58,225 nucleotides of DNA, taken from a virus. The stretch covers positions 1 to 58,225 of IMG/VR virus record IMGVR_UViG_3300001167_000001; one strand, written 5' to 3'. A model generated the notes under the pieces. It was not told the origin of the DNA and searched no databases. It was given only the letters and a program-made list of their open reading frames with translations. Both the position numbers and the translations under genes were made by a program. Below are positions 1 to 58,225 of this stretch, one piece after another. How positions within the stretch are numbered: position 1 is the stretch's first letter; each line of letters opens with the position of its first letter.

Positions 1-143
1 CCGCGCCGCCTTCGGCGCCGCTCGCGCTGATACAGGCCGCCGTCGGTTCCGATTTCCCAATGTACACGCAAGCTCGCGTGTGCGCGTATGGCGGGACTGG
101 TCCTGGCGCGTTGTACACGCAATATCCCATCGGAGCGCACTAA
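1..143 (+). CDS. 3' fragment (cut by window start) of the 191-aa signal-peptide/N-terminal-module protein
   Basis: Identical to 52678..52820; TAA at 141..143. Confidence 0.7.
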   Translation, partial: APPSAPLALIQAAVGSDFPMYTQARVCAYGGTGPGALYTQYPIGAH

Positions 144-166
144 ATACCCAATGAGGGGCGCACCCG

Positions 167-478: not shown

Positions 479-1395
479 AAAAATTTCTATTCGCCGCGCT
501 ATTGATGTTGGGCGCGCTACCCGCGAATGCTCAGCAGCATACCGATGCTCTGATCGTATCGGCGTGCGGTACATTGCCGGTTCCGTACGTCGCCGGGACT
601 TATAATTACGTGACGATGGATACGACGGGGAAGTTGTGCGATAGCGGCAGCGGAGGCGGTGGCGGCGGTACTCAGAACGTCAACCTTACTCAGATATTGG
701 GCGCCGCACCGAGTGCGACAAATCCGCTGTGGGTATCTCCTGCGACCGGCGCGACGTTCCCTGTTAGTGCAGCATCGCTGCCGCTGCCGACCGGCGCGGC
801 AACGCAGACGACACTCGCGGCCATCCTCGCAGCACAAGGCGCGGCGCCTGCACAACAGACCGGCGCGACGGTCGGTATTGTTGCCGGATCGGCGGTTATC
901 GGTAAGGTCGGCATAGATCAGACGACGCCGGGAACAACCAATGCCGTATCGGCGACGAATTTTCCCAGCACGGTCGCGACGGGTACAGGTGCTCAAGGTG
1001 CGACCGTTCCGCGCGTCACGGTCGCAACCGATCAAGCCACCAATGCGGGCGCCGCGTTGGTCAAGGGCGGCGTTGGCGTCGTCAATGGAGGCAGCACTTA
1101 TCAGGCTGTGGCAGCATCGCAGACCGCAACGGTCCTCCAAACATCGACCGGGGCAATCGGCGATTATCTTTCGCATTGTGTGATCTATCCGACCTCCACA
1201 TCGCCGGGCGTCGTGACAGTATTTGATAATACAAACGCTGCTGGTACCAACGTCATCGCCTTTCCTGGTGGTGCTAGTAGCGTGTCGAACCTTGTACCAA
1301 TCGCCGTTCCAGTTGGCGCAGTTAGTACCGCTGGAGCGTGGAAGGTGACGACTGGCGCGAACGTGTCGGCTGTCTGTTACGGGAAATTCAGCTAA
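475..1395 (+). CDS. Signal-peptide-bearing fibre-like protein, Gly/Ala/Thr-rich (306 aa)
   Basis: N-terminus MKKFLFAALLMLGALPANA|QQ; G6 run. Translationally coupled on both sides (TAATG at 1393..1397). Confidence 0.65.
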   Translation: MKKFLFAALLMLGALPANAQQHTDALIVSACGTLPVPYVAGTYNYVTMDTTGKLCDSGSGGGGGGTQNVNLTQILGAAPSATNPLWVSPATGATFPVSAASLPLPTGAATQTTLAAILAAQGAAPAQQTGATVGIVAGSAVIGKVGIDQTTPGTTNAVSATNFPSTVATGTGAQGATVPRVTVATDQATNAGAALVKGGVGVVNGGSTYQAVAASQTATVLQTSTGAIGDYLSHCVIYPTSTSPGVVTVFDNTNAAGTNVIAFPGGASSVSNLVPIAVPVGAVSTAGAWKVTTGANVSAVCYGKFS

Positions 1396-2381
1396 TGCGC
1401 CGCGTCGTCGGCTTTTTTCTGTTGGCGCTCGTTTCTTTGTTGCCTGAAACTATTTGTGCGCAGGCAATTCTTCCGGGATTTCCGCCGGGGGTTTTCACTA
1501 ACCGCGCGGCGCTCGATCCGGCACCTGCGGGGGGCTTTCAAGGCCCCGGCGACATCACGTCGGGCGCCATTGCATTCTATTCCTGCGGCCGGGCCTACAA
1601 TGCGGCATATGCCGCAGGAGCAAATCCAGCCTGCGATCTCGTCGATACCGGCACAGGGCTTGCGACCTGCACGATTTCATTTGGCACAAACGGCCTTGCT
1701 AATTTAACAGCCGTGGCCTGCCCGACAGGGGCACCGACCGTCAACGTCGTGACATTCTGCGCGGTGACTCACCCGTCAGGATGCAGCCTGACTAAGATGT
1801 ACGACCAGACCGGCACCGGCAATCATGTGGTGCAGGCGACGCTCGCCAATATGCCGGTGCTGACGTTCAGTGCGCAGAATGGGTTGCCGTGTGCGGCGGG
1901 AACGGGAAATGCGGCGATGCGACTCGCAACGGCGGGCAGCATTTCGCAATCTGCGCCATTTAGTGCGACGGCGGTTACGGAGAGAACCGGAAGTTTTACG
2001 ACGACGCAAAAGATAATCTCGAACGGGGCCAACGCCAGTACGTTTAATTTTACGGCGAGCGCGAACAGCATATCTTCGGCGCTCGGCAGTTCAGCGGCCG
2101 TGACTTTAACCGCCGCAGATAGTTCGTTTCATGCGCTGCTAGGAGTTGCGAGTGCGACCGCCCCGCTATTCGCGGTTGACTCAAGCGCCAATACTTCGAC
2201 CACGACAACTGGAACAACCGCTTTGGCAGGCAGTCAATTTCTCATGGGACGCAGCACGGGGGTACAGGCTCTTCTTGCCGGCTTCGTCTGCGAAGTCGGC
2301 ATCTGGCCAGCCGATCTCAACTCATCCTATCAAGCCATGCTCGCCAATATGCGCAGCGCGACCAATGGGTGGAATTTTTAG
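1395..2381 (+). CDS. Signal-peptide-bearing fibre-like protein (328 aa from ATG 1395)
   Basis: MRRVVGFFLLALVSLLPETICAQA. ATG 1395 overlaps the upstream TAA. The tracked ORF 1338..2381 extends further upstream. Confidence 0.6.
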   Translation: MRRVVGFFLLALVSLLPETICAQAILPGFPPGVFTNRAALDPAPAGGFQGPGDITSGAIAFYSCGRAYNAAYAAGANPACDLVDTGTGLATCTISFGTNGLANLTAVACPTGAPTVNVVTFCAVTHPSGCSLTKMYDQTGTGNHVVQATLANMPVLTFSAQNGLPCAAGTGNAAMRLATAGSISQSAPFSATAVTERTGSFTTTQKIISNGANASTFNFTASANSISSALGSSAAVTLTAADSSFHALLGVASATAPLFAVDSSANTSTTTTGTTALAGSQFLMGRSTGVQALLAGFVCEVGIWPADLNSSYQAMLANMRSATNGWNF

Positions 2382-4813: not shown

Positions 4814-4880
4814 AGTACGTGCTGAAATTCAACGCGACAATAGCTTTATCTACGGTAGGGATAGATTAAGTAGGATATTA

Positions 4881-5168
4881 ATGATTATCGACGCAGGAAC
4901 TGTAGCTGCCGGGGTTGCCGCCTTGAACCTAGTACTCACAATCGGCGGCGGTAGTTTCTTTGCTGGCAAGCTGACCGGCAAAATTCAGCGCATAGAAACC
5001 GACGTGAGGGAAACGAAAGGCTTGCTTATCACATCCGCAGTCGAAGCCGATCGGCTGCGGCGTGCGGAAGCTGACATTCACAGCGTGGAAATGGACGTTC
5101 GGAATCTGCGCAAGGGCGTCGGCTGGATAAATGACGCAGGCGCGAAGGGTGTCAATCGGGAGTATTGA
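4881..5168 (+). CDS. Small membrane/coiled-coil protein (95 aa)
   Basis: ATG 4881 in frame within tracked ORF 4707..5168. Hydrophobic N-terminus (AAGVAALNLVLTIGGGSFFAG) then a charged helical region. Confidence 0.5.
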   Translation: MIIDAGTVAAGVAALNLVLTIGGGSFFAGKLTGKIQRIETDVRETKGLLITSAVEADRLRRAEADIHSVEMDVRNLRKGVGWINDAGAKGVNREY

Positions 5169-5174
5169 ACTTTC

Positions 5175-5197
5175 TGCCGCTTTGCGGCATTGTTTAG
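5175..5197 (+). terminator. Weak Rho-independent terminator candidate
   Basis: TGCCG-cttTG-CGGCA hairpin followed by TTGTTT, just after the 5168 stop. Confidence 0.3.
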
Positions 5198-5227
5198 CAC
5201 CATGTCTAAAACCTAGGAGAGAAAACC

Positions 5228-5647
5228 ATGAGTGATCTAAAGGGCGGCCTTCAGGGCATGTTCGACGTGCTGAAGGGTGTGGAAGAACGCGCTCGCAAGC
5301 TGAAGAACCAGAACCTTGCGGACATTGCAGCGTCGGCGCACGGTCGCGTGAAGCAGCTCATCGACCACCCCGACACCGAGCTGGTGGACGAGAGGAAAGA
5401 CCAAGCGCACCCCGGCAACCCGCTGTACGTCGCACCCGCGACCAAGGACGAAGCGATTGCCAAAATGCGAGCGGACGGTGACGCTGACCCGGAAGGCACG
5501 GCGAAGCTGAATTGGCCGCACCTGTTTGAGCCGGGGGCCGCCGGCGGGTTTGCTCGCGCGCCGCAGCAAGAGCCGGGTGCTCAGCAGTGGCCTGGACAAC
5601 CGCAGTCCCGGCCGCTCGGCGCTGACGAATACCGGCGCGACCGTTAA
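5228..5647 (+). CDS. Hypothetical protein (139 aa)
   Basis: AGGAGAG 7 nt upstream of the ATG. Charged N-terminus, P/G/Q-rich C-terminus. Confidence 0.6.
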   Translation: MSDLKGGLQGMFDVLKGVEERARKLKNQNLADIAASAHGRVKQLIDHPDTELVDERKDQAHPGNPLYVAPATKDEAIAKMRADGDADPEGTAKLNWPHLFEPGAAGGFARAPQQEPGAQQWPGQPQSRPLGADEYRRDR

Positions 5648-11369: not shown

Positions 11370-12898
11370 ATTATCCTTGGGCGCCCGCAAAGACTAAAGA
11401 AGCCGTACGGGCGAAGCTCTGCGATTTCGATTACTACCGCGAAAAGTTTTTGCGCGTACGCCCGCGTGAAGGCGGCGAGCGCGTACCGTTCATTTTGAAC
11501 AGCGCACAGCGTATGTTACACGCTCGCGTCGAACGTGAGCATGAAGTATTCGGCATGGTGCGCGCTCTCATACCCAAAGCGCGTCGCATGGGCGTCAGTA
11601 CGTACATAGGCGGCCGGTATTTTCATCAAACCGCAACTAGGTTCGGCCGGCGTGCGCAAGTCGTAGCGCACCGATCGGATAGCGCCGGCAACCTGCATCG
11701 TGAAATCAAGGAATTTGCCAACGGCCTGCCGCCGCCCCTGCGTCCGTCGATCGGTGCTACGAACGCTTATGAGCTGATTTTTGACAAGCTAAAATCGCTG
11801 TATAAGGTCGCGTCCGCGGATGGCGGCGACATCGGCCGGTCTGACGACTTCCACAATCTGCATCTGTCGGAAGCGGCGTTCTTCGACAACACGGAAGATT
11901 TGTCTTCCGGTCTTTTGCAAACCGTACAGGACTTGCCGGGGACTGAGATAGCTTTGGAAAGCACCGGCAACGGCCAGTCTGGTATGTTCTACAATATGTG
12001 TGAGGAAGCCGCACGGCAGCAAAACAAAGGACCGTGGCGTGTTCATTTCCTGCCGTGGTCGATTATGCCTGAATACCGTACGGACGTGCCGCAAGGGTGG
12101 GCCGCGCCAAAGGAATTTGAAGACTACGCCAAATTGCATGGCCTGGATCGTGAACAACTCTATTGGTTTTGGAAGCACAATTACACCATCGCGATAATGA
12201 ACGGCGGTCAGCCTGAGACGATTCACCGGCTGACGCGCCAAGAGTATCCGGCCATCTATAGCGAATGTTTCATGGCCGATAGTACGCTGGACTTCTACCC
12301 GGCGTCGCTGGTCCAGGCTGCTATGACCAGCAAGCCGGCGCCTTCCGCGGGGGCGTTGAAACTGCTTTGTGTAGATCCTGCCGGCGACGGCCAGGATAAG
12401 CCCTTTGTCTGCGATCGGCAGGGCTCCGCGATCGGAGTGCGGGTGTGGGGCGAACTGGCGAGCCGCGACGCCAACGTGGCGTCTGATTGGCTTGTAGCGA
12501 CGTACCGGCGCTTCGACATGGACGCCATTTTGATAGACGGCACGGGCGGCTACGGGCGCGATTTAGTTGCCGGTTGCCGCCTGCGCATGCGGGAGTTAGG
12601 ACCGGAAAAAATCGTACCTGTCGTGTTCAGTCATGGCGCGCATAATTCCGTTATGTACGGTAATAGACGTGCGGAGTTGCACGATAAGCTGTTGCGTTGG
12701 CTTAGTGGTAAAGTATCGATGCCAAACGATAAGATGACACAAGAAGAAGCGGCGGCGTACAAGTGGGGCCAGAATGCTTGTCGGCGTGACGAAAACGCGC
12801 GGTTGTTTATGACGCCAAAAGAGAAAATTAGGAAAGAGATTGGCCGATCCCCCGATCGTTGGGATTGCTGTGCTATTTCAATGGCGATTGAGAGCTGA
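11366..12898 (+). CDS. terL: Terminase large subunit (510 aa, TTG start)
   Basis: Walker-A-like KARRMGVST, Walker B LHLSEAAF, ESTGNG. Nuclease acidic motifs LLCVDPAGDG, ILIDGTGGYG, SPDRWD. Confidence 0.85.
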   Translation: MNYPWAPAKTKEAVRAKLCDFDYYREKFLRVRPREGGERVPFILNSAQRMLHARVEREHEVFGMVRALIPKARRMGVSTYIGGRYFHQTATRFGRRAQVVAHRSDSAGNLHREIKEFANGLPPPLRPSIGATNAYELIFDKLKSLYKVASADGGDIGRSDDFHNLHLSEAAFFDNTEDLSSGLLQTVQDLPGTEIALESTGNGQSGMFYNMCEEAARQQNKGPWRVHFLPWSIMPEYRTDVPQGWAAPKEFEDYAKLHGLDREQLYWFWKHNYTIAIMNGGQPETIHRLTRQEYPAIYSECFMADSTLDFYPASLVQAAMTSKPAPSAGALKLLCVDPAGDGQDKPFVCDRQGSAIGVRVWGELASRDANVASDWLVATYRRFDMDAILIDGTGGYGRDLVAGCRLRMRELGPEKIVPVVFSHGAHNSVMYGNRRAELHDKLLRWLSGKVSMPNDKMTQEEAAAYKWGQNACRRDENARLFMTPKEKIRKEIGRSPDRWDCCAISMAIES

Positions 12899-37162: not shown

Positions 37163-39232
37163 TTATTTTTGCCACGGGAAACTCTCCTTTGGTATGTCGA
37201 TTGCGTACGGTATCGTCAATTCCTGCCGTACACTACCAGCCGGCGGAAAGATAGCAAAAAATGGGTATCCGTACAAGCCCCTAAAATGTCCGCTTTCCAC
37301 AAGGCTTTTCATGCCGTCCTCAAACATTTTTTTGGCGGCATCCTTGGTGACGACGTAGCCAGGAACCTCGCCTTTAACGGCGTGGCCTATCTCGGCTGCC
37401 ACACTATCGAATTTGACGATGCTGCCGGCGCGCAAGGCGTCCATGCCGGCGGCGGTAACTCCGGGCAGCATCGCAGCCAGCTTCAAGACGGCGGATTGCT
37501 CTTTAACTTCTTTAATCACTTCGGAAGTGCGCTTGAACACGTTGACGGTGGTTGTACGACCCTTCGCGTCTTTGCCGTAGTTCTCAGATACGATCTTGCC
37601 AGTGTAGCTTTTGGCCTTCGGGGCGCCGCGCGTTTTGCCGCAATCAACCGATACGTAATCATTGCGGCCGCCAGTGACGCGATATACAAAGCCGCTATTG
37701 CCCGACTTGGCGCCGTTGCCTTTCTGAAATGCGTCTTCATTGCCGAGCGGTAAATGATCGGTGACAAGTACAGCGGCACCCGTACGCCGCGCTAGGTTTT
37801 TCAGAATGAACATGGCTTTTAGAACAGCTTCAGTGTCGTTGTCGGCAAAGCAAAGTCCTGACGCGCCCCAGGTATCCAGCACAATTATATCGACACGCTT
37901 ATCCATCGCGATCATGGCTTGAACCTGCGCCGCGCATTGTTGTTCAAAGGCCATCGGTTCATTGACGCCGCGGATCATGTGAAAGCGCCCCGCTAGCTCG
38001 GTCGCGTTCGGCTCTTGACGCAGCAGATGCCTTATGCGTCGTTCTGTGCCGTAGTCATCTTCAGCGGCAACCCACAGTACATGACCACTTGCGCGCTCGT
38101 TATCGGCGTCAAGCCACGACTGCCCCCGAAGAAATTGGAAAGCCAAGTCAGTAACAAGCGCGGACTTACCGGCCCCGCTGTGCCCGGTGAAAAAGTGAAC
38201 TTCACCGCAAAGTATCCTCTGATATAATAGCCATGGTAGCTCTGCACTGTCGTCCTCCAAGGATATTTCAAAGCCCGTGCGTTTGGCGAGTGTTGGCGCT
38301 ATCTGCGCGTCATGCAGCCCTTGAATCATCGTACGGCGCGACATGATCGCTTGCATAATCAGATTGCCGCGCAACACTGGCAGTTCATCTTGTCGGCTGA
38401 TTTCCTCGCCTAACGTACGGCCGCCGATTCCTTCATCCAGACTGTGCCCGGCATTGGTGATCGCGTCTTCGATTTCGTGCCGCGTGATGATGCCGTTCTG
38501 CTCGGCGAATTTCAGGACGCCGACAAGGGCGAAGATTGTAGATCCGCGCCCTTCGGTTTTGCCCCGCAGTTCATGCGTCAGCGTGCCTAGGTAACGATCG
38601 GCAGCATTGCGGCCGGCTTGCCATTCGTCATACGTCTGCGGCTTTGCGTATTTCAGCTCATCGGCGCTGGCGGTTTCATGCTCGGCTGCAAAGCGCAGCG
38701 ATGTGCCAGCGCGCAACGGGACTTCAGATAAAACCGTTTGCAGTTGCTCTGTTGTTAATCGCGGCCAGTCAACGCTCCAATTCTCCCACTGGTAGTGTTG
38801 GCCGGTGTCCTTATGCGGGCCAAAGGCGATAAATTGACCGCCCATGAGCTGTAAGTGCTCGCCGTTCGCAAAAGTGAATGTACGTCCGCGTACAGGCGCG
38901 TCAACGAGGTAGAACGGGATTAGGAAACGATTCGGCCTGCCGCGCCTCACAGGGATATTCAGGCCGAGCACTGAGCGGAAAGCGGCCAACAATTTTGGGG
39001 ATAGCGCTGGGTCCGACACGTCAACGTCGAATGCGGTCAGTCCATTATCGCCGCAGCGGAGCCCCACGCTGCCAGCGCCGGGGTGTGCGATCGGCGAAGT
39101 CCATATGTTCCAGCCGTCGCCTATGGGGGCCTTGCTGTTCCGTGCTATGGCGAGGGGGAAAAGGCCGCGCGCAATGGCGGCGTCCCAAAAGGATTGTATG
39201 TCGTACGCAGTTGTGCTAGGGGGAGCGAGCAT
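37163..39232 (-). CDS. Bifunctional primase-polymerase (PrimPol) fused to a RecA-like/AAA_25 replicative helicase (689 aa)
   Basis: The N-terminus GLFPLAIARNSKAPIGDGW...FDVDV is Prim-Pol-like. Walker A GHSGAGKSAL and Walker B DIIVLDTWG. Confidence 0.75.
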   Translation of the reverse strand: MLAPPSTTAYDIQSFWDAAIARGLFPLAIARNSKAPIGDGWNIWTSPIAHPGAGSVGLRCGDNGLTAFDVDVSDPALSPKLLAAFRSVLGLNIPVRRGRPNRFLIPFYLVDAPVRGRTFTFANGEHLQLMGGQFIAFGPHKDTGQHYQWENWSVDWPRLTTEQLQTVLSEVPLRAGTSLRFAAEHETASADELKYAKPQTYDEWQAGRNAADRYLGTLTHELRGKTEGRGSTIFALVGVLKFAEQNGIITRHEIEDAITNAGHSLDEGIGGRTLGEEISRQDELPVLRGNLIMQAIMSRRTMIQGLHDAQIAPTLAKRTGFEISLEDDSAELPWLLYQRILCGEVHFFTGHSGAGKSALVTDLAFQFLRGQSWLDADNERASGHVLWVAAEDDYGTERRIRHLLRQEPNATELAGRFHMIRGVNEPMAFEQQCAAQVQAMIAMDKRVDIIVLDTWGASGLCFADNDTEAVLKAMFILKNLARRTGAAVLVTDHLPLGNEDAFQKGNGAKSGNSGFVYRVTGGRNDYVSVDCGKTRGAPKAKSYTGKIVSENYGKDAKGRTTTVNVFKRTSEVIKEVKEQSAVLKLAAMLPGVTAAGMDALRAGSIVKFDSVAAEIGHAVKGEVPGYVVTKDAAKKMFEDGMKSLVESGHFRGLYGYPFFAIFPPAGSVRQELTIPYAIDIPKESFPWQK

Positions 39233-39282
39233 TCACTAGCCATAGTGGTGAGTGCATTTCTAGCCCTGTCGCGGGAGTCGAG

Positions 39283-39307
39283 CCCCGCGGCGGGGTTTTT
39301 CTTTTTA
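39283..39307 (+). terminator. Orphan plus-strand hairpin + T-run at the edge of the AT-rich island
   Basis: CCCCG-cgg-CGGGG followed by TTTTTCTTTTTA. There is no plus-strand gene upstream. Confidence 0.35.
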
Positions 39308-39517
39308 TGCCTGCGTCACGGCGTTGTCAAACAGACGCGGGTCATAACCCAACCGGTGCCACCGCGACTGGATCAAACGCGTCTCGCTTGCACTTAGGAC
39401 AGCGTTCGTTTTCTAGAATCCCGCCCGCGTCACAAACCACGCATCGCCAAGTAGATGTATCGCAAATATGCCCCGTCAACTTCGGAAAATCACGGCCGCA
39501 AACGAGAAATGAGACTT

Positions 39518-40399
39518 TTAGCCTGGAGCGCCCTCAAATGTGGCGGGCGGCGCGATTGGAGGGGCTACTGGAATGCTTGTTGTGGGAGGGGCTGGAATCG
39601 CCCCCGGGGGCAGATTGATCTGCATGGTGCAGGTTTCGTTCGTGGGCAATTTAGGTCGTGGCGGGTTGGCTACACGGTTGCAGCCATCGTCTGTGCAATT
39701 ACCCTCATCGCACAAGGCGTGCAGAAATACGAGTTCACCTCGCACGTTCATCGTTCCAAAAATGCGCCAGCAGAATCTAGTAGTTCGAATATCGCTCCTA
39801 AACACGTCTTTATATCTCGCCCATCCCCAAATGTACGCGAATCGGAACCTTTGCTGCATTTCATTAAGATAGCTTTGAGGGAAAAATCCGACCGATCCGT
39901 CTGGTTGTCGAAAGGCGGGCGCACTCAAAACTTGCTTTGGGCCGACAGAAGATGGCCCGTCAATTTTTTTCGTACTATCAACATTTGTGAAGCCTTCAGC
40001 CAAATCGTCTCTAGAAAATTGGAAATTCACAATGGAGTTCATTTCAAGAGCAGCGGTGTTTCCAGTGTTTTCCCATTGGGGAATGAAGTAGTACCCGATG
40101 ATGGTATTTATTTGAGTTTGGTTGACGATAACACTCAGTGGAACGATCAGGGCATCGTGAAGAATTATCGAGGCCCGTTGCGCGTAATAGAGATTGTCTT
40201 TTTCAGTTTGCGAAGTACAGGTCCCGAGAACAAAGAGGCACGCTGTTACTCCGGTATATATGGCTACGGCTACGAACGTGCGTATGCTCCATGTGCGATT
40301 TTGCTGTTGGTGTTCATCGTTTTTAGCCTGAGCGGTCTGATATTCAGCAGCAAAGGATTTAAACGCCGCGACAGAAAGGGGACGATCCTCATCTTCCAT
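39518..40399 (-). CDS. Membrane-anchored protein of unknown function in a low-GC island (293 aa)
   Basis: AGGAAA SD 7 nt before ATG 40399. Single TM segment (WSIRTFVAVAIYTGVTACLFVLG), Cys-rich and Pro-rich C-terminus. The region is visibly more AT-rich than its flanks. Confidence 0.6.
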   Translation of the reverse strand: MEDEDRPLSVAAFKSFAAEYQTAQAKNDEHQQQNRTWSIRTFVAVAIYTGVTACLFVLGTCTSQTEKDNLYYAQRASIILHDALIVPLSVIVNQTQINTIIGYYFIPQWENTGNTAALEMNSIVNFQFSRDDLAEGFTNVDSTKKIDGPSSVGPKQVLSAPAFRQPDGSVGFFPQSYLNEMQQRFRFAYIWGWARYKDVFRSDIRTTRFCWRIFGTMNVRGELVFLHALCDEGNCTDDGCNRVANPPRPKLPTNETCTMQINLPPGAIPAPPTTSIPVAPPIAPPATFEGAPG

Positions 40400-40513
40400 G
40401 GCTGGCTTTCCTTTGTGATCGCTCTAGTAGCTGCCGCGTGGCTTATTACTGGTGAACATGTTTTTATTTCCAGTTCTGCTGAGCGCGTCTCCGCCGCCCC
40501 CGGGATCGACGCC

Positions 40514-40702
40514 TCAGCAACGTGCTATAGCCGCGCCGAAAATGTCCGCGTTCTCCCGATTGTTATACCGGAACTCAAACTCGGCAACGTAGAGCGGCAT
40601 GTACTTGGCGCTGACCTTGTGGAACGTGCCAACCACGCCGCGTTTCAGGATCGACCAGAAGATTCCGAAGGGCCGTGCGAGGCGGCCCGCTAGGTTCGGG
40701 AG
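40514..40702 (-). pseudogene. IS1595-family (ISXO2-like) transposase, C-terminal remnant only (about 62 codons)
   Basis: Hand translation ...PFGIFWSILKRGVVGTFHKVSAKYMPLYVAEFEFRYNNRENADIFGAAIARC* matches the family C-terminus (FWS.LKRG..G.YH.VS.KHL..Y..EF.FRYN.R). An in-frame TGA lies immediately upstream. Confidence 0.7.
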
Positions 40703-40723
40703 TCAAGTATATAATTCCCTTTT

Positions 40724-40976
40724 ATGCTTATCCGGTTGTCACCCATGCGATCCGGTAACCTGTACCTGCACACAAACGATATCTGGGCGCGCCGGGAACA
40801 CACGATTTTTTGCACGTTCGCAGTCGGATTGACCGAGATATAGGCCGTTCATCGCCGATGGCCCGGCGGTGTTGAGCGTTTGGTAGCAGCTAGGAAGCAG
40901 TCCGCAATTTAGCGTGGTCCAAAGTAGCATTATGAACATGATTTCATCTCCTTATGGGTGACAACCGGATAAGCAT
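40724..40976. mobile_element. 253-bp miniature element with 23-bp terminal inverted repeats, flanked by a 10-bp direct repeat
   Basis: ATGCTTATCCGGTTGTCACCCAT (40724..40746) is the reverse complement of 40954..40976. ATTCCCTTTT occurs at 40714..40723 and 40978..40987. The termini share CATGCTTATCCGGTT with the MTase cassette. Confidence 0.7.
40739..40939 (-). CDS. 66-aa hydrophobic-N-terminus peptide carried by the miniature element
   Basis: AGGAG SD 8 nt before ATG 40939. MFIMLLWTTLNCGLLPSC... The stop lies inside the left inverted repeat. Confidence 0.45.
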   Translation of the reverse strand: MFIMLLWTTLNCGLLPSCYQTLNTAGPSAMNGLYLGQSDCERAKNRVFPARPDIVCVQVQVTGSHG

Positions 40977-40985
40977 GATTCCCTT

Positions 40986-41156
40986 TTATATCGTCCCCAT
41001 CACAACACGAAACATGACGTACGCGAAGAACGCGGTGACGATCAGCAATGCACCGCCGACGACAATGCGCGCTGTACGTACACCGAAGGCGAATGTGATG
41101 GCGGCGACGAGCATGAACAGCGAGAACGAGCCGCCGTGTCTGTGTCCGTGGGTCAT
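40986..41156 (-). CDS. Micro-ORF, 56-aa two-TM membrane protein
   Basis: Hand translation MTHGHRHGGSFSLFMLVAAITFAFGVRTARIVVGGALLIVTAFFAYVMFRVVMGTI. Starts 3 nt after the upstream stop. Confidence 0.45.
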   Translation of the reverse strand: MTHGHRHGGSFSLFMLVAAITFAFGVRTARIVVGGALLIVTAFFAYVMFRVVMGTI

Positions 41157-41159
41157 GGC

Positions 41160-41366
41160 CTAGGCCCCCACGATGATGTTGTGGCGGCTCTTAAACGCAG
41201 CCCGTTGTTCGCTCGACAGGTCGTAGTACATGGATGCGATAAGCGCTTCCAGCATGCCGAGCTGATAAGCCGTACGGTATTCGATGCACGTGCCGGATGT
41301 TACGGCTCGATCGGCGGAAATTCGCTCCCACGTTTTGCTCAGAACCAGAGGATCCACGCTCATCAC
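41160..41366 (-). CDS. Hypothetical protein (68 aa)
   Basis: ORF; ATGA coupling with 41363. Confidence 0.5.
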   Translation of the reverse strand: MMSVDPLVLSKTWERISADRAVTSGTCIEYRTAYQLGMLEALIASMYYDLSSEQRAAFKSRHNIIVGA

Positions 41367-44772: not shown

Positions 44773-45251
44773 TCTGGAGCGATAAGCAAATTGCGCTGCT
44801 CAAAAAGCTCTGGCCCCAAGGTTTGCCGGCGGGTCAAATTGCCGACGAAATCGGCGTTGGGCGTAATGCTGTGGTTGGCAAAGCGCGTCGGCTCGGCTTA
44901 GGAGAGCATTCGGGGAGTACGCGGAATTTGCAGTTACGCGCCGCACAACGAGTTACGCCGCAAAAGTCGGGACCTGTATCAACACGGTTAAAAATACGTG
45001 GCCGACATGGCGCGTTTGGGGCTGGGTTAGAATTACAAGTTGCGCCGTCTATTTTGCCACTGATGCCCGACGGTTCCAACATCCCACCCGCACAACGCCG
45101 TACATTGTTGCAACTCAAACCCGGCGTCTGCAAATGGCCCTTCGGCGAACCGCAGTCCCACGATTTCTTTTTCTGCGGCGGCGACGCTATCGAGGGCAAG
45201 CCATATTGCGCGGGCCATTGTCGCGTGGCTTATCAGGCTCCCAAGCGCTAA
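44769..45251 (+). CDS. gcrA: GcrA-family cell-cycle regulator homologue (160 aa, GTG start)
   Basis: N-terminus WSDKQIALLKKLWPQGLPAGQIADEIGVGRNAVVGKARRLGL. C-terminus CKWPFGEPQSHDFFFCGGDAIEGKPYCAGHCRVAYQ. Both GcrA signature regions are present. Confidence 0.75.
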   Translation: MIWSDKQIALLKKLWPQGLPAGQIADEIGVGRNAVVGKARRLGLGEHSGSTRNLQLRAAQRVTPQKSGPVSTRLKIRGRHGAFGAGLELQVAPSILPLMPDGSNIPPAQRRTLLQLKPGVCKWPFGEPQSHDFFFCGGDAIEGKPYCAGHCRVAYQAPKR

Positions 45252-45257
45252 AGGAAA

Positions 45258-45983
45258 CATGCTTATCCGGTTTAAACACACAAAAGTTCCGAGCCACTAA
45301 ATGTTGATGCAACCAAAACCTAAGGCTCTCGACCTGTTTTGCGGCGCTGGCGGCGCAACCATGGGGCTGCATAATGCTGGCTTTGAAGTGGTCGGCGTCG
45401 ATTTGAGACCGCAGCCGCATTACCCCTTCCGCTTCGTCCGCGCCGACGCGCTGAGACCCCCCTTTGACTTGCGAGAATTTGACCTTGTGTGGGCTTCCCC
45501 GCCTTGTCAGGCGCACGTCGGCTTTAATGCTTCCTGGAACGACCACCAGCACGTTTCGCTTATCGATGAGACCCGCAAGCTGTTGGCAGGGCATCCTAGA
45601 TACGTGATCGAAAACGTCGTCGGGGCGCCGCTGCGCAACCCGATGACCCTTTGCGGAACACATTTTGGCCTGGGAGTACGCCGGCATCGGCGTTTCGAGA
45701 CCAATTTCGGCTGTACCGCTCGGAAAGCTTGCTCTTGCCGGGGCAAAAAGCTTGTCGGCGTGTACGGCGACCATCCACAAGGCCATTTCGGCGATGGGTA
45801 TCGGATACCGCGTGCGCGCTCGATCGCAGAGGCGCGGGAGGCTATGGGCATCGATTGGATGGATTGGCGTGAAATCACGCAAGCTATTCCTCCCGCCTAT
45901 TCCGAGTACATCGGGCGTGCTGCCTTGGCCCATTTGCAACAGACACAAGATGTAGAGCTGTGTGTTTAAACCGGATAAGCATG
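45258..45983. mobile_element. 726-bp TIR-bounded cassette carrying only a C5-methyltransferase gene; 8-bp target-site duplication
   Basis: Perfect 25-bp inverted repeats at 45258..45282 and 45959..45983. AAAGGAAA lies directly outside both ends (45250..45257, 45984..45991). Confidence 0.8.
45301..45969 (+). CDS. Compact DNA (cytosine-5)-methyltransferase (222 aa)
   Basis: Motif I DLFCGAGG, IV SPPCQ, VI ENV, VIII RRHRRF, X QAIPPAYSEYIG. Confidence 0.8.
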   Translation: MLMQPKPKALDLFCGAGGATMGLHNAGFEVVGVDLRPQPHYPFRFVRADALRPPFDLREFDLVWASPPCQAHVGFNASWNDHQHVSLIDETRKLLAGHPRYVIENVVGAPLRNPMTLCGTHFGLGVRRHRRFETNFGCTARKACSCRGKKLVGVYGDHPQGHFGDGYRIPRARSIAEAREAMGIDWMDWREITQAIPPAYSEYIGRAALAHLQQTQDVELCV

Positions 45984-46134
45984 AAAGGAAACACTGTGGT
46001 AGGCAATCAAAAAGCCATCTTATGGATTTGGGGCGTGGGGTTTGCAGTCGCAATTATAATTGTATTTGCCGCCTAAGTGACAAACCAGCCCTAACCGTGC
46101 TACCGTCCCGCAATTCAGTTGCGGAGCGGTCAAA

Positions 46135-52244: not shown

Positions 52245-52820
52245 ATGAAGACTTTCACTGCTAGACTTCGCGCTGCGTTGGCTGCACTGGCTTTGCTGGC
52301 GCCGGCTCCCGCACTGGCTTTGCTGGCGCCGCTGCCCGCGCTTGCGCAAACCGTCGTACAAGTCCCCGTCAACGTGAATGCGCGTGCGGTCGCTGACTTG
52401 GGCAACGGGCCAACCGAAGTCCGGATGATCCAGGGCAGCATGGGGCTCTTTACGGCTCAGGGCTCTGGCGTCGGCAGCACGTCGGGTTCGTCCACCGCAC
52501 TTACGCTGACGGCGAGCGCCGCAGCCAACCCGCCTTGCGTCGGCTGCATCATTTCCGGCGTCGGCATTACGTCGGGCACTACTGTCGCCGCGTTCAACGG
52601 CACGACCGGCGTTACGCTCTCCGCAGCGATGACCGTTGCGGCCTCTACGCCGCTCGCATGGGGCCAGGCGTGCCCGTCCGCGCCGCCTTCGGCGCCGCTC
52701 GCGCTGATACAGGCCGCCGTCGGTTCCGATTTCCCAATGTACACGCAAGCTCGCGTGTGCGCGTATGGCGGGACTGGTCCTGGCGCGTTGTACACGCAAT
52801 ATCCCATCGGAGCGCACTAA
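52245..52820 (+). CDS. Signal-peptide-bearing protein consisting of the tailspike N-terminal module only (191 aa)
   Basis: Residues about 35-185 align with residues about 25-165 of the 814-aa tailspike (ADLGNGP..VRMI.G....FTAQGSG.GSTSGSSTALTLTA...SGITSGTTVAA.NGTTGVTLSAAMTVA...MYTQARVCA). 21-bp unit repeated at 27-bp spacing (52284..52304, 52311..52331) in the signal peptide. Confidence 0.65.
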   Translation: MKTFTARLRAALAALALLAPAPALALLAPLPALAQTVVQVPVNVNARAVADLGNGPTEVRMIQGSMGLFTAQGSGVGSTSGSSTALTLTASAAANPPCVGCIISGVGITSGTTVAAFNGTTGVTLSAAMTVAASTPLAWGQACPSAPPSAPLALIQAAVGSDFPMYTQARVCAYGGTGPGALYTQYPIGAH

Positions 52821-52843
52821 ATACCCAATGAGGGGCGCACCCG

Positions 52844-53155
52844 ATGGTTGCCAATCCTATAAAGACGATACCGCGAAGCTATCAGTCCTGGGTCAATCTC
52901 GCCGTCACGCCAGCAACCGATTTTGAGCTGGATGCGGGTAGTTACGGACTCACGGTAGCTACTGCCGGCTTCACCAGTTACCAGCTCCAGAGATTGCTGC
53001 CTGACGGGGTGACGTACACGCCTGCCATGCCAGTGGCGGCCGCGGCTGGTTATACTGTGCTTGATCTGCCGGCGGGGCGGTACAGCATGGTTGTTGTCGG
53101 CGCGACGGCGTTTACTGGCTTGATCGAGAAAATCGATACGGGGCGCGCACGATGA
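52844..53155 (+). CDS. Second copy of 167..478
   Basis: Identical translation. Confidence 0.6.
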   Translation: MVANPIKTIPRSYQSWVNLAVTPATDFELDAGSYGLTVATAGFTSYQLQRLLPDGVTYTPAMPVAAAAGYTVLDLPAGRYSMVVVGATAFTGLIEKIDTGRAR

Positions 53156-54072
53156 AAAAATTTCTATTCGCCGCGCTATTGATGTTGGGCGCGCTACCCG
53201 CGAATGCTCAGCAGCATACCGATGCTCTGATCGTATCGGCGTGCGGTACATTGCCGGTTCCGTACGTCGCCGGGACTTATAATTACGTGACGATGGATAC
53301 GACGGGGAAGTTGTGCGATAGCGGCAGCGGAGGCGGTGGCGGCGGTACTCAGAACGTCAACCTTACTCAGATATTGGGCGCCGCACCGAGTGCGACAAAT
53401 CCGCTGTGGGTATCTCCTGCGACCGGCGCGACGTTCCCTGTTAGTGCAGCATCGCTGCCGCTGCCGACCGGCGCGGCAACGCAGACGACACTCGCGGCCA
53501 TCCTCGCAGCACAAGGCGCGGCGCCTGCACAACAGACCGGCGCGACGGTCGGTATTGTTGCCGGATCGGCGGTTATCGGTAAGGTCGGCATAGATCAGAC
53601 GACGCCGGGAACAACCAATGCCGTATCGGCGACGAATTTTCCCAGCACGGTCGCGACGGGTACAGGTGCTCAAGGTGCGACCGTTCCGCGCGTCACGGTC
53701 GCAACCGATCAAGCCACCAATGCGGGCGCCGCGTTGGTCAAGGGCGGCGTTGGCGTCGTCAATGGAGGCAGCACTTATCAGGCTGTGGCAGCATCGCAGA
53801 CCGCAACGGTCCTCCAAACATCGACCGGGGCAATCGGCGATTATCTTTCGCATTGTGTGATCTATCCGACCTCCACATCGCCGGGCGTCGTGACAGTATT
53901 TGATAATACAAACGCTGCTGGTACCAACGTCATCGCCTTTCCTGGTGGTGCTAGTAGCGTGTCGAACCTTGTACCAATCGCCGTTCCAGTTGGCGCAGTT
54001 AGTACCGCTGGAGCGTGGAAGGTGACGACTGGCGCGAACGTGTCGGCTGTCTGTTACGGGAAATTCAGCTAA
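53152..54072 (+). CDS. Second copy of 475..1395
   Basis: Identical translation. Confidence 0.65.
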   Translation: MKKFLFAALLMLGALPANAQQHTDALIVSACGTLPVPYVAGTYNYVTMDTTGKLCDSGSGGGGGGTQNVNLTQILGAAPSATNPLWVSPATGATFPVSAASLPLPTGAATQTTLAAILAAQGAAPAQQTGATVGIVAGSAVIGKVGIDQTTPGTTNAVSATNFPSTVATGTGAQGATVPRVTVATDQATNAGAALVKGGVGVVNGGSTYQAVAASQTATVLQTSTGAIGDYLSHCVIYPTSTSPGVVTVFDNTNAAGTNVIAFPGGASSVSNLVPIAVPVGAVSTAGAWKVTTGANVSAVCYGKFS

Positions 54073-55058
54073 TGCGCCGCGTCGTCGGCTTTTTTCTGTT
54101 GGCGCTCGTTTCTTTGTTGCCTGAAACTATTTGTGCGCAGGCAATTCTTCCGGGATTTCCGCCGGGGGTTTTCACTAACCGCGCGGCGCTCGATCCGGCA
54201 CCTGCGGGGGGCTTTCAAGGCCCCGGCGACATCACGTCGGGCGCCATTGCATTCTATTCCTGCGGCCGGGCCTACAATGCGGCATATGCCGCAGGAGCAA
54301 ATCCAGCCTGCGATCTCGTCGATACCGGCACAGGGCTTGCGACCTGCACGATTTCATTTGGCACAAACGGCCTTGCTAATTTAACAGCCGTGGCCTGCCC
54401 GACAGGGGCACCGACCGTCAACGTCGTGACATTCTGCGCGGTGACTCACCCGTCAGGATGCAGCCTGACTAAGATGTACGACCAGACCGGCACCGGCAAT
54501 CATGTGGTGCAGGCGACGCTCGCCAATATGCCGGTGCTGACGTTCAGTGCGCAGAATGGGTTGCCGTGTGCGGCGGGAACGGGAAATGCGGCGATGCGAC
54601 TCGCAACGGCGGGCAGCATTTCGCAATCTGCGCCATTTAGTGCGACGGCGGTTACGGAGAGAACCGGAAGTTTTACGACGACGCAAAAGATAATCTCGAA
54701 CGGGGCCAACGCCAGTACGTTTAATTTTACGGCGAGCGCGAACAGCATATCTTCGGCGCTCGGCAGTTCAGCGGCCGTGACTTTAACCGCCGCAGATAGT
54801 TCGTTTCATGCGCTGCTAGGAGTTGCGAGTGCGACCGCCCCGCTATTCGCGGTTGACTCAAGCGCCAATACTTCGACCACGACAACTGGAACAACCGCTT
54901 TGGCAGGCAGTCAATTTCTCATGGGACGCAGCACGGGGGTACAGGCTCTTCTTGCCGGCTTCGTCTGCGAAGTCGGCATCTGGCCAGCCGATCTCAACTC
55001 ATCCTATCAAGCCATGCTCGCCAATATGCGCAGCGCGACCAATGGGTGGAATTTTTAG
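54072..55058 (+). CDS. Second copy of 1395..2381
   Basis: Identical translation. Confidence 0.6.
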   Translation: MRRVVGFFLLALVSLLPETICAQAILPGFPPGVFTNRAALDPAPAGGFQGPGDITSGAIAFYSCGRAYNAAYAAGANPACDLVDTGTGLATCTISFGTNGLANLTAVACPTGAPTVNVVTFCAVTHPSGCSLTKMYDQTGTGNHVVQATLANMPVLTFSAQNGLPCAAGTGNAAMRLATAGSISQSAPFSATAVTERTGSFTTTQKIISNGANASTFNFTASANSISSALGSSAAVTLTAADSSFHALLGVASATAPLFAVDSSANTSTTTTGTTALAGSQFLMGRSTGVQALLAGFVCEVGIWPADLNSSYQAMLANMRSATNGWNF

Positions 55059-57490
55059 TGCGTAGATTTCTAGCCGCCTCAGCAGTACTGCTCTTTACGG
55101 CGTTCCCCGCGCTCGCGCAGAACGCCATCACTCTGCCGATCGCCGCGAACGCGGTCGCCGACTTAGGCAACGGCCCTATCAAGGTCCGCATGATCGCGGG
55201 TAACGCATCAATTTTCACGGCACAAGGATCTGGCACTGGCAGCACGTCGGGTTCGTCCACAGCACTGACTTTGACTGCGACGCCGGCAACGCCACCGCTC
55301 GTTGGTGGCCTGATTTCCGGCAGTGGCATCACGTCAGGAACGACGGTCGCAGCGTACAACGGTACAACGGGCGTAACGCTGTCGGCGGCCATGACTGTAG
55401 CCGGCGGTACGACGGTTTCATGGGGCGCCGCGTGTCCATCAACGCCACCTAGCAGCGTAATTCAGGCGTCGCCTTCGGCCGACGGCTATGTGATGTACAC
55501 ACAAGCGCGCGTGTGTGCAGTTTCACCGGGTGGCCCGGTTAACACGCTTTTGATTTCTCCGGTTTTTCAGGATAGTCAAGGTGGAAGCGGCAGCGGGAAC
55601 GTAAATGGGCCGGCAACATCGATCGTAGGAGGCGTCGCGGTATGGAAAAACGGGGCTGGAACTTTACTCGCAGACGGTGCAACAGATGACGGATTTTTTG
55701 GTTCAGGTCGTCCATGGGCCGATATTAGGGCCTACGGCGCTAAAGGCGATGGTGCGACGGACGACACAGCGGCGATAACAGCGGCGTATAATCAGCTTGC
55801 CGCAATTGGTGGCGGTGACCTATTCTTCCCGCCAGCACCTAACGGTCTTTATTGCACCTTTACTGGAATAACGATTTCCAACGGCAACGTGCATTTGAGA
55901 TTCGCCGCCAACGGCGCGGCTTCAAATGGAATCAGTTCTTTAAGTTCTTGCGGCCACGATGTCACGACGTTGAATTTGAACGCCGGCTCTATCATACTGG
56001 ACTACGCAAATATCATCGGCGATGGGTATGGCGCGACGCACCCGGCACTGGATTTCGGTCCAAGTTGCGGCGGTTGCAAAATGCACTTCGGCAGCGTCAG
56101 CGGCGGCACTTCTCCGGTATTGATCGAAGGCGTTGATGACCGTATCGAAAACGTCAACGTTGCTCCAGGTTACGGCACTGCATCGATTAAGATCATCAAT
56201 GGCGCGACGTATTTAGATCATGTTTCAGCCGATCTTAGCCCCCCGGTCTACACGCTGACTAATGCCAATTTCAGCGGCGGCGCCGCGTCGTGGGCGGCAA
56301 CCCATGCCTATTCTGGTTCGGTGACTGTCTCAACACAGGGATTTTTTATTCAGCTTGTAACGGCAAGCTGTACTAGCGGTGGCAGCGCGCCGACGCTGAA
56401 ATCGTACGGAACAAACATTACGGACGGTACTTGTACGTGGAAATTATTGTCACCTGGAACTTATTACAGTGTACAGGTCGATACCGGGGCCAGCGCAGTC
56501 TATCTGAACAACGGCGATAGTAGCGGGCCTTTTGTGGCAGGAGTCGGCGTTACAAACACAAGTGCAGGCACGGCACCGGGTGGCATCACCGTTGAAAATT
56601 GGAATTTCGGGGCTAACCTACAGGCTGGAATTTACGCTCATGACGGCAATACGCTTTCGGTTTCAGACTCTACACTGAATGGATGCATCTATGGTGGCTG
56701 TGCTGGTATTTATACTTTAGGGTCGTGGACCGGAGTCGTGAATGCGAGCAGTAACTTAATTGTTGGTGAACAGGCCGGCATCGATTTGACCGTCGGCGGT
56801 GGCGACACCATCGTCGGCAACACCATCGTTGCCAATGTAACCGGCGTGCTCGTCTCCAACAATTATGCGAATTTCAACATCAACAACAATAATTTTTATA
56901 ACGCGGCGTACGGCGCCAATTCCGGTAACGATATTACGATCGGTACGGGCGCGATACACTGTAATGTCATCGGCAACAGTAGCAACGGCGGTACTTTTAG
57001 TACAGGGGCGTGCAAAGCATTCGCCAATGACGGTTCTGTCGTAAGTTACACCAACGGTGGCACCAACGCCACGTCGCTTGCGGGGGCGCAGGCAAATTTG
57101 TTGATCGGAACATTAATGAGCGTTCCGGCTACTGTGAATTTTGCGGTGGCTGGTGATTATGCGATCGCGGTCCCACTTCCTGCGGGATTCACACAATTTA
57201 GAGCCGACGATATTGTCATATCGCAGTGTAGTGTATCGCTTTCTGGCGCCACATTCGGTCTATTCACGGCAACCGGAGGCGGTGGCGCGGCGATCATCAC
57301 GGCAGGTGCTACTTCGAACGTAACAAACAATACCGCTAATACAAATAACAACATGCAATTCGGCGCCGGCTTTATTAATAACATTGGTACGGAGGCGTAC
57401 ACACCAGTTAGCGGAAATGTCCAATTTCGTGTTGGTTCAACGGCTGCAGGAACGTGTTCTGTGGCGTTTCAATATAAACCTGTGCCATGA
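55046..57490 (+). CDS. Second copy of the tailspike 2369..4813
   Basis: Identical translation. Confidence 0.7.
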   Translation: MEFLVRRFLAASAVLLFTAFPALAQNAITLPIAANAVADLGNGPIKVRMIAGNASIFTAQGSGTGSTSGSSTALTLTATPATPPLVGGLISGSGITSGTTVAAYNGTTGVTLSAAMTVAGGTTVSWGAACPSTPPSSVIQASPSADGYVMYTQARVCAVSPGGPVNTLLISPVFQDSQGGSGSGNVNGPATSIVGGVAVWKNGAGTLLADGATDDGFFGSGRPWADIRAYGAKGDGATDDTAAITAAYNQLAAIGGGDLFFPPAPNGLYCTFTGITISNGNVHLRFAANGAASNGISSLSSCGHDVTTLNLNAGSIILDYANIIGDGYGATHPALDFGPSCGGCKMHFGSVSGGTSPVLIEGVDDRIENVNVAPGYGTASIKIINGATYLDHVSADLSPPVYTLTNANFSGGAASWAATHAYSGSVTVSTQGFFIQLVTASCTSGGSAPTLKSYGTNITDGTCTWKLLSPGTYYSVQVDTGASAVYLNNGDSSGPFVAGVGVTNTSAGTAPGGITVENWNFGANLQAGIYAHDGNTLSVSDSTLNGCIYGGCAGIYTLGSWTGVVNASSNLIVGEQAGIDLTVGGGDTIVGNTIVANVTGVLVSNNYANFNINNNNFYNAAYGANSGNDITIGTGAIHCNVIGNSSNGGTFSTGACKAFANDGSVVSYTNGGTNATSLAGAQANLLIGTLMSVPATVNFAVAGDYAIAVPLPAGFTQFRADDIVISQCSVSLSGATFGLFTATGGGGAAIITAGATSNVTNNTANTNNNMQFGAGFINNIGTEAYTPVSGNVQFRVGSTAAGTCSVAFQYKPVP

Positions 57491-57557
57491 AGTACGTGCT
57501 GAAATTCAACGCGACAATAGCTTTATCTACGGTAGGGATAGATTAAGTAGGATATTA

Positions 57558-57845
57558 ATGATTATCGACGCAGGAACTGTAGCTGCCGGGGTTGCCGCCT
57601 TGAACCTAGTACTCACAATCGGCGGCGGTAGTTTCTTTGCTGGCAAGCTGACCGGCAAAATTCAGCGCATAGAAACCGACGTGAGGGAAACGAAAGGCTT
57701 GCTTATCACATCCGCAGTCGAAGCCGATCGGCTGCGGCGTGCGGAAGCTGACATTCACAGCGTGGAAATGGACGTTCGGAATCTGCGCAAGGGCGTCGGC
57801 TGGATAAATGACGCAGGCGCGAAGGGTGTCAATCGGGAGTATTGA
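57558..57845 (+). CDS. Second copy of 4881..5168
   Basis: Identical translation. Confidence 0.5.
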   Translation: MIIDAGTVAAGVAALNLVLTIGGGSFFAGKLTGKIQRIETDVRETKGLLITSAVEADRLRRAEADIHSVEMDVRNLRKGVGWINDAGAKGVNREY

Positions 57846-57904
57846 ACTTTCTGCCGCTTTGCGGCATTGTTTAGCACCATGTCTAAAACCTAGGAGAGAA
57901 AACC

Positions 57905-58225
57905 ATGAGTGATCTAAAGGGCGGCCTTCAGGGCATGTTCGACGTGCTGAAGGGTGTGGAAGAACGCGCTCGCAAGCTGAAGAACCAGAACCTTGCGGAC
58001 ATTGCAGCGTCGGCGCACGGTCGCGTGAAGCAGCTCATCGACCACCCCGACACCGAGCTGGTGGACGAGAGGAAAGACCAAGCGCACCCCGGCAACCCGC
58101 TGTACGTCGCACCCGCGACCAAGGACGAAGCGATTGCCAAAATGCGAGCGGACGGTGACGCTGACCCGGAAGGCACGGCGAAGCTGAATTGGCCGCACCT
58201 GTTTGAGCCGGGGGCCGCCGGCGGG
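57905..58225 (+). CDS. Second copy of 5228..5647, truncated by the window end
   Basis: Identical sequence up to the window edge. Confidence 0.6.
   Translation, partial: MSDLKGGLQGMFDVLKGVEERARKLKNQNLADIAASAHGRVKQLIDHPDTELVDERKDQAHPGNPLYVAPATKDEAIAKMRADGDADPEGTAKLNWPHLFEPGAAGG

Follow-up and report, generated by a model that had tools for sequence, protein, structure and literature searches.

How does a single small gene come to lie between inverted repeats in a phage genome that encodes no transposase for them? The question is raised by a 253-bp element at 40724-40976 (with a terminal G at 40977), here called el.1, in the IMG/VR viral record IMGVR_UViG_3300001167_000001; the window is this whole stretch of DNA, 58,225 nucleotides (nt) long. 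A second element in the window, a methyltransferase cassette at 45258-45983 (el.2), has the same outermost sequence. The available observations make it highly probable that el.1 is a non-autonomous derivative of an ISAcr1-like insertion sequence (IS) of the IS1595 family, which keeps ends of about 23 nt and has one small open reading frame (ORF) at the position of the parent's transposase gene; i.e., it is a mobile insertion cassette (MIC) or a coding miniature inverted-repeat transposable element (MITE).

Terminal repeats and flanking duplication of el.1

The left terminal inverted repeat of el.1, ATGCTTATCCGGTTGTCACCCAT (40724-40746, plus strand), and 40954-40976 are exact reverse complements over 23 nt (100%; I11 in the repeat finder), as the original prediction had described; with its terminal G, the right repeat occupies 40954-40977 on the minus strand. 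Both ends were identified by sequence reading and the repeat finder, and were examined with shuffled sequences and a profile. It had also been proposed that the outer 14 or so nt match the termini at 45258 and 45983, and this was borne out: the 14-mer ATGCTTATCCGGTT has exactly four exact copies in the window, which are the outer 14 nt of the el.1 and el.2 ends arranged as two inward-facing pairs, and exact matches occurred in 0 of 100 dinucleotide-preserving shuffles. The same four sites, and no others in the window, were returned when three mismatches were allowed. A profile built from 185 family ends likewise found only those four ends in the genome, with no further degenerate ones, and scored each el.1 end at E ~1e-6. 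The description of the two as sister elements is a loose one, as they share only the outer 14-15 nt and represent different end sub-types ('CACCCA' in el.1, shared with the transposase-bearing loci L022 and L073, and 'CACACA' in el.2).

The sequence ATTCCCTTTT is found on either side of el.1 (40714-40723 and 40978-40987), and a G (40977) separates the right arm from the right copy (the 1-nt offset noted previously). The right copy shares 2 nt with the stop codon (40986-40988) of a 56-amino-acid (aa) ORF, an overlap that had also been noted. When el.1 is read by the end rule of its family (C-ATGC...GCAT-G plus an 8-bp duplication), the target-site duplication is ATTCCCTT, present on both sides (40714-40721 and 40978-40985); the direct repeat runs on to 40987 as ATTCCCTTTT, and at the left, TT (40722-40723) stands in place of the terminal C. 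Compared in strict register, the duplication therefore shows three mismatches, owing to the left TT. The same odd junction was observed in another locus, L071 (8110-8127 and 8804-8821), in which the left terminal C is also absent and the flanking direct repeat is 16 nt, compared with 10 nt in el.1. The irregular junction of el.1 may have arisen by mutation after insertion, by inexact cleavage of the end or by some other route of entry.

El.1 is present in the same context in seven assembled contigs (JGI, Logan, ENA), and is therefore not an assembly artefact. Megablast of the el.1 region against GenBank phages gave no match, and blastn and tblastx comparisons of its interior with other cassettes and transposases gave matches at the ends only.

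The ends belong to the IS1595 family

A scan of IMG/VR with the 15-mer CATGCTTATCCGGTT returned at least 119 loci. Among the matches listed were 49 distinct elements with inward-facing CATGCTTATCCGGTT pairs 180-1970 bp apart. The ends of 41 of these 49 listed elements read C-ATGC...GCAT-G, and a perfect 8-bp direct repeat, different in sequence for each element and 69% AT, lies immediately outside 36 of the 49. As duplications of differing sequence directly flank these pairs, the arrangement is a signature of transposition.

Elements with the same ends that encode a transposase, which the original prediction had suggested should be sought, were found in other viral contigs. The protein encoded by the long copies (L022, L056, L073, L107, L109 and about ten more loci), which is 347-350 aa in length, matched PF12762 DDE_Tnp_IS1595 (E = 7e-34), PF12760 Zn_ribbon_IS1595 (E = 3e-11) and NCBIfam NF033547 (E = 9e-56). 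The IS1595 family is defined by a transposase that combines a Zn-ribbon (Zn_Tnp_IS1595) at the N-terminus with a DDE_Tnp_IS1595 domain at the C-terminus, and by an 8-bp target-site duplication (PMC8101967). This architecture is present in the autonomous relatives with the same ends (L073 and others); el.1 itself encodes no transposase, and can therefore only be an IS1595 derivative.

The closest named element to the viral transposase is ISAcr1 of Acidiphilium (63.6% amino-acid identity; the name is that of the Prokaryotic Genome Annotation Pipeline annotation). In plasmid pACRY02 (NC_009468), ISAcr1 has the ends C-TTGCCTATCCGGTTGACTCCCAT and is flanked by the 8-bp duplication ATATATTG; its end is identical to the el.1 repeat at 19 of 23 positions, i.e., the ends are homologous. 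Alphaproteobacterial chromosomes and plasmids also contain multi-copy simple insertion sequences of ~1.1 kb with transposases that are 60-78% identical, diverged ends ([A/G/T]TGC[C/T]TATCCGG) and 8-bp duplications. Other phage contigs and alphaproteobacterial genomes both contain cognate transposases. In the window, nothing similar to the family transposase was found, and el.1 and el.2 are consequently non-autonomous, of the MIC/MITE type. The earlier suggestion of a family of non-autonomous, cargo-carrying elements with common ends is thus supported, and the family is IS1595 (ISAcr1-like) with 8-bp duplications.

The plan of el.1 recurs in other small members of the family. L214 (298 bp) has the end of el.1 over at least 22 nt, a perfect duplication (ATCTGCAT) and an ORF of ~80 aa, and further minimal single-ORF cassettes are found in L034 (273 bp) and L058 (280 bp). 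In family members, the start codon of the ORF lies at about nt 33-47 and the stop codon within the repeat, a layout that the el.1 ORF fits.

Insertion at the edge of an older element

El.1 lies beside a remnant of a second IS1595-type element family, here named IS-B. El.1 inserted at the outer edge of a solo IS-B terminal inverted repeat, GGGAATTATATACTTGACTCCC on the minus strand (40698-40719; motif GGGAGTCAAGTATATAATTCCC). Fused to this repeat are 48 residues that remain from the C-terminal part of the IS-B transposase (DDE_Tnp_IS1595; 40514-40660, minus strand; Pfam E = 1e-9). This truncated copy (40514-40719) has the one IS-B end left in the window, and its transposase fragment matches the C-terminus of the L033 transposase with 79% identity. 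IS-B ends occur as inverted pairs with 8-bp duplications in L077, L071 and L029 (TAATATAT, TAAATTTG and CAAATTAT), and in L077, L071 and L010 a separate, distantly related IS1595 transposase is encoded between the paired ends. The identity between the IS-B transposase and any plasmid-borne transposase is at most 45%.

The ATTCCC in the flanking repeat of el.1, the first 6 nt of the left duplication copy, is the last 6 nt of the IS-B end, because el.1 sits at the outer edge of the IS-B element. The target ATTCCCTT spans the IS-B end plus its flank, and el.1 therefore arrived after IS-B. In L010, an independent and different family-A cassette is inserted in the same IS-B repeat, with the duplication ATGTATAT, which fits an AT-rich target preference.

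A route by which el.1 reached this position can be proposed. A Zn-ribbon/DDE IS1595 transposase would be supplied in trans, from an autonomous copy on a co-infecting phage or from ISAcr1-like copies of the (alphaproteobacterial) host. This enzyme would bind both ends and insert the element at an AT-rich 8-bp target, which would be duplicated. Within this phage lineage, el.1 would have landed on ATTCCCTT at the outer edge of the older, truncated IS-B, with the 56-aa gene immediately upstream. The direction of the cargo ORF is that of the surrounding leftward replication-gene operon, and read-through transcription could express it in the manner of a moron; such expression is possible because the ORF is co-oriented, has its own Shine-Dalgarno (SD) site and stops inside the repeat.

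The 66-aa ORF

The original prediction placed a 66-aa ORF with a strong SD site and a hydrophobic N-terminus at 40739-40939 on the minus strand, and the same ORF was obtained here, where it was also called as a gene in the source contig. The SD sequence AAGGAG (40948-40953, minus strand; direct sequence reading) is 8 nt upstream of the ATG, and the TGA stop (40739-40741, minus strand) is inside the left repeat arm of el.1. The predicted product contains four Cys residues; its N-terminal 15 residues are hydrophobic, and direct inspection showed that a canonical lipobox is absent. Among the six frames of the el.1 interior, the frame of this ORF alone was positive in codon log-likelihood, with a score of 0.05 per codon, the same as that of the el.2 methyltransferase. 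The ORF has the same orientation as all of the neighboring called genes. Pfam and NCBIfam gave no match for it. Taken together, the balance tips modestly towards the ORF being an expressed gene.

The methyltransferase cassette

El.2 is a 726-bp non-autonomous cassette (45258-45983, plus strand) with perfect 25-nt terminal inverted repeats (45258-45282 and 45959-45983; I6 in the repeat finder), identified from sequence, the repeat finder and Pfam. Its cargo is a cytosine-C5 DNA methyltransferase-like gene (45301-45969) with a TAA stop inside the right repeat. The perfect 8-bp duplication (AAAGGAAA), the extended sub-terminal repeat and the cargo ATG at nt 43 are typical of its sub-type. The left duplication copy (45250-45257) overlaps the stop codon of the gene for a GcrA homolog, and the right copy (45984-45991) provides the SD site for a downstream membrane micro-ORF (GTG at 45996). 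Matches to the methyltransferase-like cargo with 45-64% identity were found in seven other loci, and in L022 a C5-methyltransferase gene lies beside the transposase gene within a single element. Distant blastn of el.2 against GenBank phages matched only short methyltransferase segments in mycobacteriophages.

The tip of the element has a further property, seen in el.2 (45258-45303) and in L010, L021, L029, L091 and others: an ATG at nt 2-4 opens a 13-codon mini-ORF that ends (TAA or TAG) immediately ahead of the cargo ATG. Fourteen of 39 cargo proteins begin M-L, from a conserved ATGTTGA, and several end ..HKM, ..HNI or ..DVxLCV, read out of the extended right repeat. In el.2, the left AAAGGAAA copy forms an SD site 1 nt ahead of the tip ATG, and the right copy (45984-45998 region) retains an SD site for the downstream micro-ORF. 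Judged from this arrangement of reading frames, translation of the tip mini-ORF and the cargo may possibly be coupled. The micro-ORF that directly follows el.2 (45996-46076) encodes 26 hydrophobic residues, or 38 aa when counted from the GTG inside the repeat.

Genome context and relatives

The window represents a circular or terminally redundant phage genome of 52,677 bp, with a 5.5-kb overlap in which 1-5548 is identical to 52678-58225 (repeat finder); the source contig, ENA ERZ28654904 scaffold_10, is 52,732 bp. Its gene products include a large terminase subunit, DNA polymerase, helicase, primase, exonuclease and a 1349-aa transglycosylase-containing virion protein. The GcrA homolog among them points to an alphaproteobacterial host.

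Three IMG/VR loci, L120-L122, are syntenic relatives of the phage. The segment 39334-40987, which comprises a 45-aa ORF, a 293-aa ORF, the IS-B remnant and el.1, is replaced by unrelated short segments in the relatives, and in L120 and L122 homology restarts just 2-3 nt past the right repeat copy of el.1. El.2 and the membrane micro-ORF that follows it are absent from L120-L122, in which the GcrA stop region joins shared ...GTGCTACCGTCCCGCAATTC... sequence. As they are absent or replaced in syntenic relatives, el.1 and el.2 lie in variable 'moron' slots. The slot at 39334-40987 is hypervariable, lies between the upstream region of the primase gene and the 56-aa gene, and is occupied by unrelated short genes in L120 and L122. 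Its 293-aa ORF (39518-40399, minus strand) had no Pfam or NCBIfam match and nine metagenome homologs (37-73% identity); it was considered as cargo of IS-B and rejected, as neither IS-A nor IS-B ends lie close to its homologs.

The family has been present repeatedly in this phage lineage: L121 has a diverged family end, CAACCCGAAAAGCATG, in the equivalent region (2370-2400), and the close relative L082 has a one-ended cassette (12085-12418) downstream of its terminase homolog, with an ORF that starts from the conserved ATGTTGA.

Two other features of the window were recorded. ARAGORN reported an 88-nt tRNA-Ile(gat) at 41140-41227, overlapping the 56-aa ORF and a 68-aa ORF; this call is probably a false positive, as Rfam shows no tRNA there at E <= 1. 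A strong terminator-like hairpin of 14 pairs followed by a T-run (39262-39307), upstream of the primase gene, is kept in L120 and L122, and is overlapped by a sub-threshold Rfam match to rnk_pseudo (28.8 bits, against a gathering threshold of 55).

Alternative explanations

Several observations weigh against el.1 being an ISAcr1-like cassette with a genuine gene. Its left junction departs from the family rule, with TT for the terminal C and a direct repeat of 10 nt, and it lacks the ~40-nt extended sub-terminal repeat that is present in simple insertion sequences and in el.2; on both counts this copy may now be immobile. No second copy of its interior was found anywhere searched, and no cassette in this sample was found in two different contexts. 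The uninterrupted el.1 site would be the IS-B end joined directly to ...TTTTATATCGTCCCC, and the direct joins expected without insertion are ...GTATATAATTCCCTTTTATATCG... or ...GCGCTAAAGGAAACACTGTGG... (regions 40700-41000 and 45240-46000). It had been suggested that related phages be checked for such a site, and none was found for el.1 or el.2: L120-L122 have other DNA in place of a precise empty site, and exact-pattern scans were negative (metagenome contigs for el.1, viral and metagenome contigs for el.2). A comparison of the reconstructed empty sites of all paired elements with all fetched loci had a single outcome, which was an artefact. The codon score of the 66-aa ORF (0.05) is below the core-gene mean (0.153 +/- 0.068), and the AlphaFold model of its product is of low confidence, with a predicted local distance difference test score of 60. 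No homolog was found among 5.8 billion clusters, where a word-indexed search returned the query itself only, and an exhaustive HMMER search of 1.84 billion representatives gave no credible homolog. The sole HMMER match, a MopE-repeat protein in which a 27-residue match is repeated six times, was judged to be due to chance, as Pfam was empty for the 66-aa sequence even at E <= 10.

These properties of the ORF are what would be expected if el.1 were a plain non-coding MITE, i.e., a decayed IS1595 derivative in which only the ends matter and the 66-codon frame is fortuitous; the lack of any homolog, the uninformative domain searches and structure prediction and the weakly positive codon score all agree with it, and by estimate rather than computation an open frame of this length is not very improbable by chance in 253 bp of 52% GC. 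However, the ORF fills el.1 just as cargo ORFs fill the other small members of the family, AAGGAG is at ideal spacing, and the stop codon falls within the repeat, a feature that el.2 and many other members share. It is also the sole positive-scoring frame, with a score equal to that of the el.2 methyltransferase; it runs in the direction of the operon, and gene calling in the source assemblies had included it. A non-coding element is therefore rather unlikely. The atypical junction of el.1 (a 10-nt repeat and a missing terminal C, with a 16-nt repeat in the similar L071) could instead mean that el.1 did not transpose into this phage, and that the block 39334-40987 was acquired by recombination, or el.1 by a non-canonical microhomology or recombination route. 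Consistent with this, unrelated short segments occupy the slot in L120 and L122, with homology reaching back to 2-3 nt from the right repeat copy, and the 1-kb windows over 39001-41000 have 50.5-55.6% GC, compared with mostly 51-62% elsewhere in the genome. Nevertheless, both flanks retain the 8-bp ATTCCCTT, and the target, when reconstructed, covers the IS-B end together with its flank, which is the arrangement expected if IS-B preceded el.1. Entry by recombination is accordingly improbable, and it would bear on the history of el.1 alone, leaving the nature of the element unchanged.

The shared ends could also be a palindrome of the phage or host with a regulatory or RNA-structural role, or one resembling repetitive extragenic palindromic (REP) sequences; a REP-like background was the objection that the original prediction had raised against itself. 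The motif is indeed frequent in viral contigs, and a long-range stem for each pair is possible in principle. The 14-mer is, however, common in viromes as transposon ends with differing duplications: 36 of the 49 listed pairs are bounded by perfect 8-bp duplications of unrelated sequence, the autonomous copies have an IS1595 transposase between the same ends, and the same core is found in the ends of a named insertion sequence, ISAcr1. At el.1, scans for promoters, terminators and Rfam families gave no signal. For practical purposes, the palindrome explanation is refuted. The favored explanation for these observations is that el.1 is a transposase-less, ISAcr1-like IS1595 derivative whose ends enclose a small cargo ORF.

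Cargo and distribution of the family

Among the 39 cargo proteins, Pfam recognizes DNA methyltransferases (C5, N6/N4 and D12), one protein with a NADAR domain and one that is MazG-like; the majority belong to no family. Only 16 of the 119 listed loci share any protein with this phage, and one of these is a close relative; the cassettes are therefore found on many different phage backbones. A test of cargo orientation relative to neighboring genes was discarded, as naive longest-ORF calls are unreliable at this GC content and mis-called the flanks in the window itself. Among GenBank phages (50,697 records), an IS1595-type transposase of either kind was found in only 2-3 small metagenomic records. 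In uncultivated phage genomes, one IS1595 lineage is common on many unrelated backbones, mostly as transposase-less cassettes with differing accessory genes. No description of IS1595-derived cassettes in phages was found in the literature searched.

These cassettes suggest a concrete route for single 'moron' genes into phage genomes, and the combination of CATGCTTATCCGG ends with an 8-bp duplication is a sequence handle for a systematic search for such genes. El.1 itself adds modestly to this picture, as a further cassette of the kind, possibly immobile, whose peptide gene is an orphan. A broader proposal can be made tentatively, at somewhat less than even likelihood, namely that a phage-adapted ISAcr1-like branch of IS1595 serves the phages of Alphaproteobacteria as a general shuttle for single genes. 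The transposase ORF would be swapped, from start to stop codon, for accessory genes, the ends would give the start context and the stop, and the cassettes would be moved in trans by transposases of the host or of co-infecting phages. If so, transposition would be a major and previously unnoticed route by which these phages gain moron and anti-defence genes.

Comparison with known systems

Phage morons, as described by Hendrix and colleagues, are single accessory genes between two backbone genes that are absent from relatives, and are defined without a mobility signature. El.1 resembles a moron in that its accessory gene is missing from relatives, but this gene lies between transposon ends that are flanked by a target duplication. 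An integron gene cassette, which has an attC recombination site at one end, belongs to an integrase-dependent array and leaves no target duplication, was ruled out by the symmetric ends, the 8-bp duplications, the DDE transposase in relatives and the lack of an array. The mobile elements MPME1 and MPME2 of Cluster G mycobacteriophages encode their own small putative transposase, and their sequence is unrelated to that of el.1. Like el.1, they are very small, bounded by inverted repeats and located between or within phage genes (PMC3029335). They are 439-440 bp long, and their insertion adds an unexplained 6 bp next to the left inverted repeat, IR-L (PMC3029335), in contrast to the 8-bp duplication of the el.1 family.

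ISAcr1 shares with el.1 the end core C-[A/T]TGC[C/T]TATCCGGTTG.C.CCCAT (19 of 23 positions), with the el.1 family an 8-bp duplication, and with the autonomous viral copies a transposase that is 64% identical and has the same Zn-ribbon and DDE_Tnp_IS1595 architecture. Unlike ISAcr1, el.1 is only 253 bp, has no transposase, retains ~23 nt of the ~40-nt extended end, encloses an unrelated small ORF and resides in a phage genome. Transporter IS (tIS), which have passengers beside the transposase, were first noted in the IS1595 family, according to a passage in PMC3129680 that cites Siguier et al. 2009. Viral copies such as L022, with a transposase and a C5 methyltransferase, are of this kind, as IS1595-type ends enclose their passenger genes; tIS keep the transposase, whereas el.1 and el.2 have lost it.

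MITEs are small and non-coding, usually with many copies in a genome, and have terminal inverted repeats and a target duplication. El.1 fits them in size, ends and duplication, but its interior occurs only once in the genome, was found nowhere else and is filled by an ORF. Mobile insertion cassettes, as defined in PMC3129680 (citing De Palmenaer 2004), have IS ends around one or more passenger genes and no transposase. In MIC231 of the Bacillus cereus group (derived from IS231) and in MITEs, as in el.1, IS ends flank passenger DNA that is presumed to be mobilized in trans by the cognate IS. El.1 differs from MIC231 in its parent (IS1595 rather than IS4/IS231), in its ends, in being single-copy and in belonging to a family spread across phage genomes, where MIC231 is found on bacterial replicons. 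With its confirmed ends, an interior lacking similarity to any transposase and one predicted ORF with an SD site, el.1 is a MIC/MITE of an already known insertion-sequence family, and the phage-borne population of single-gene IS1595 cassettes to which it belongs is the interesting part.

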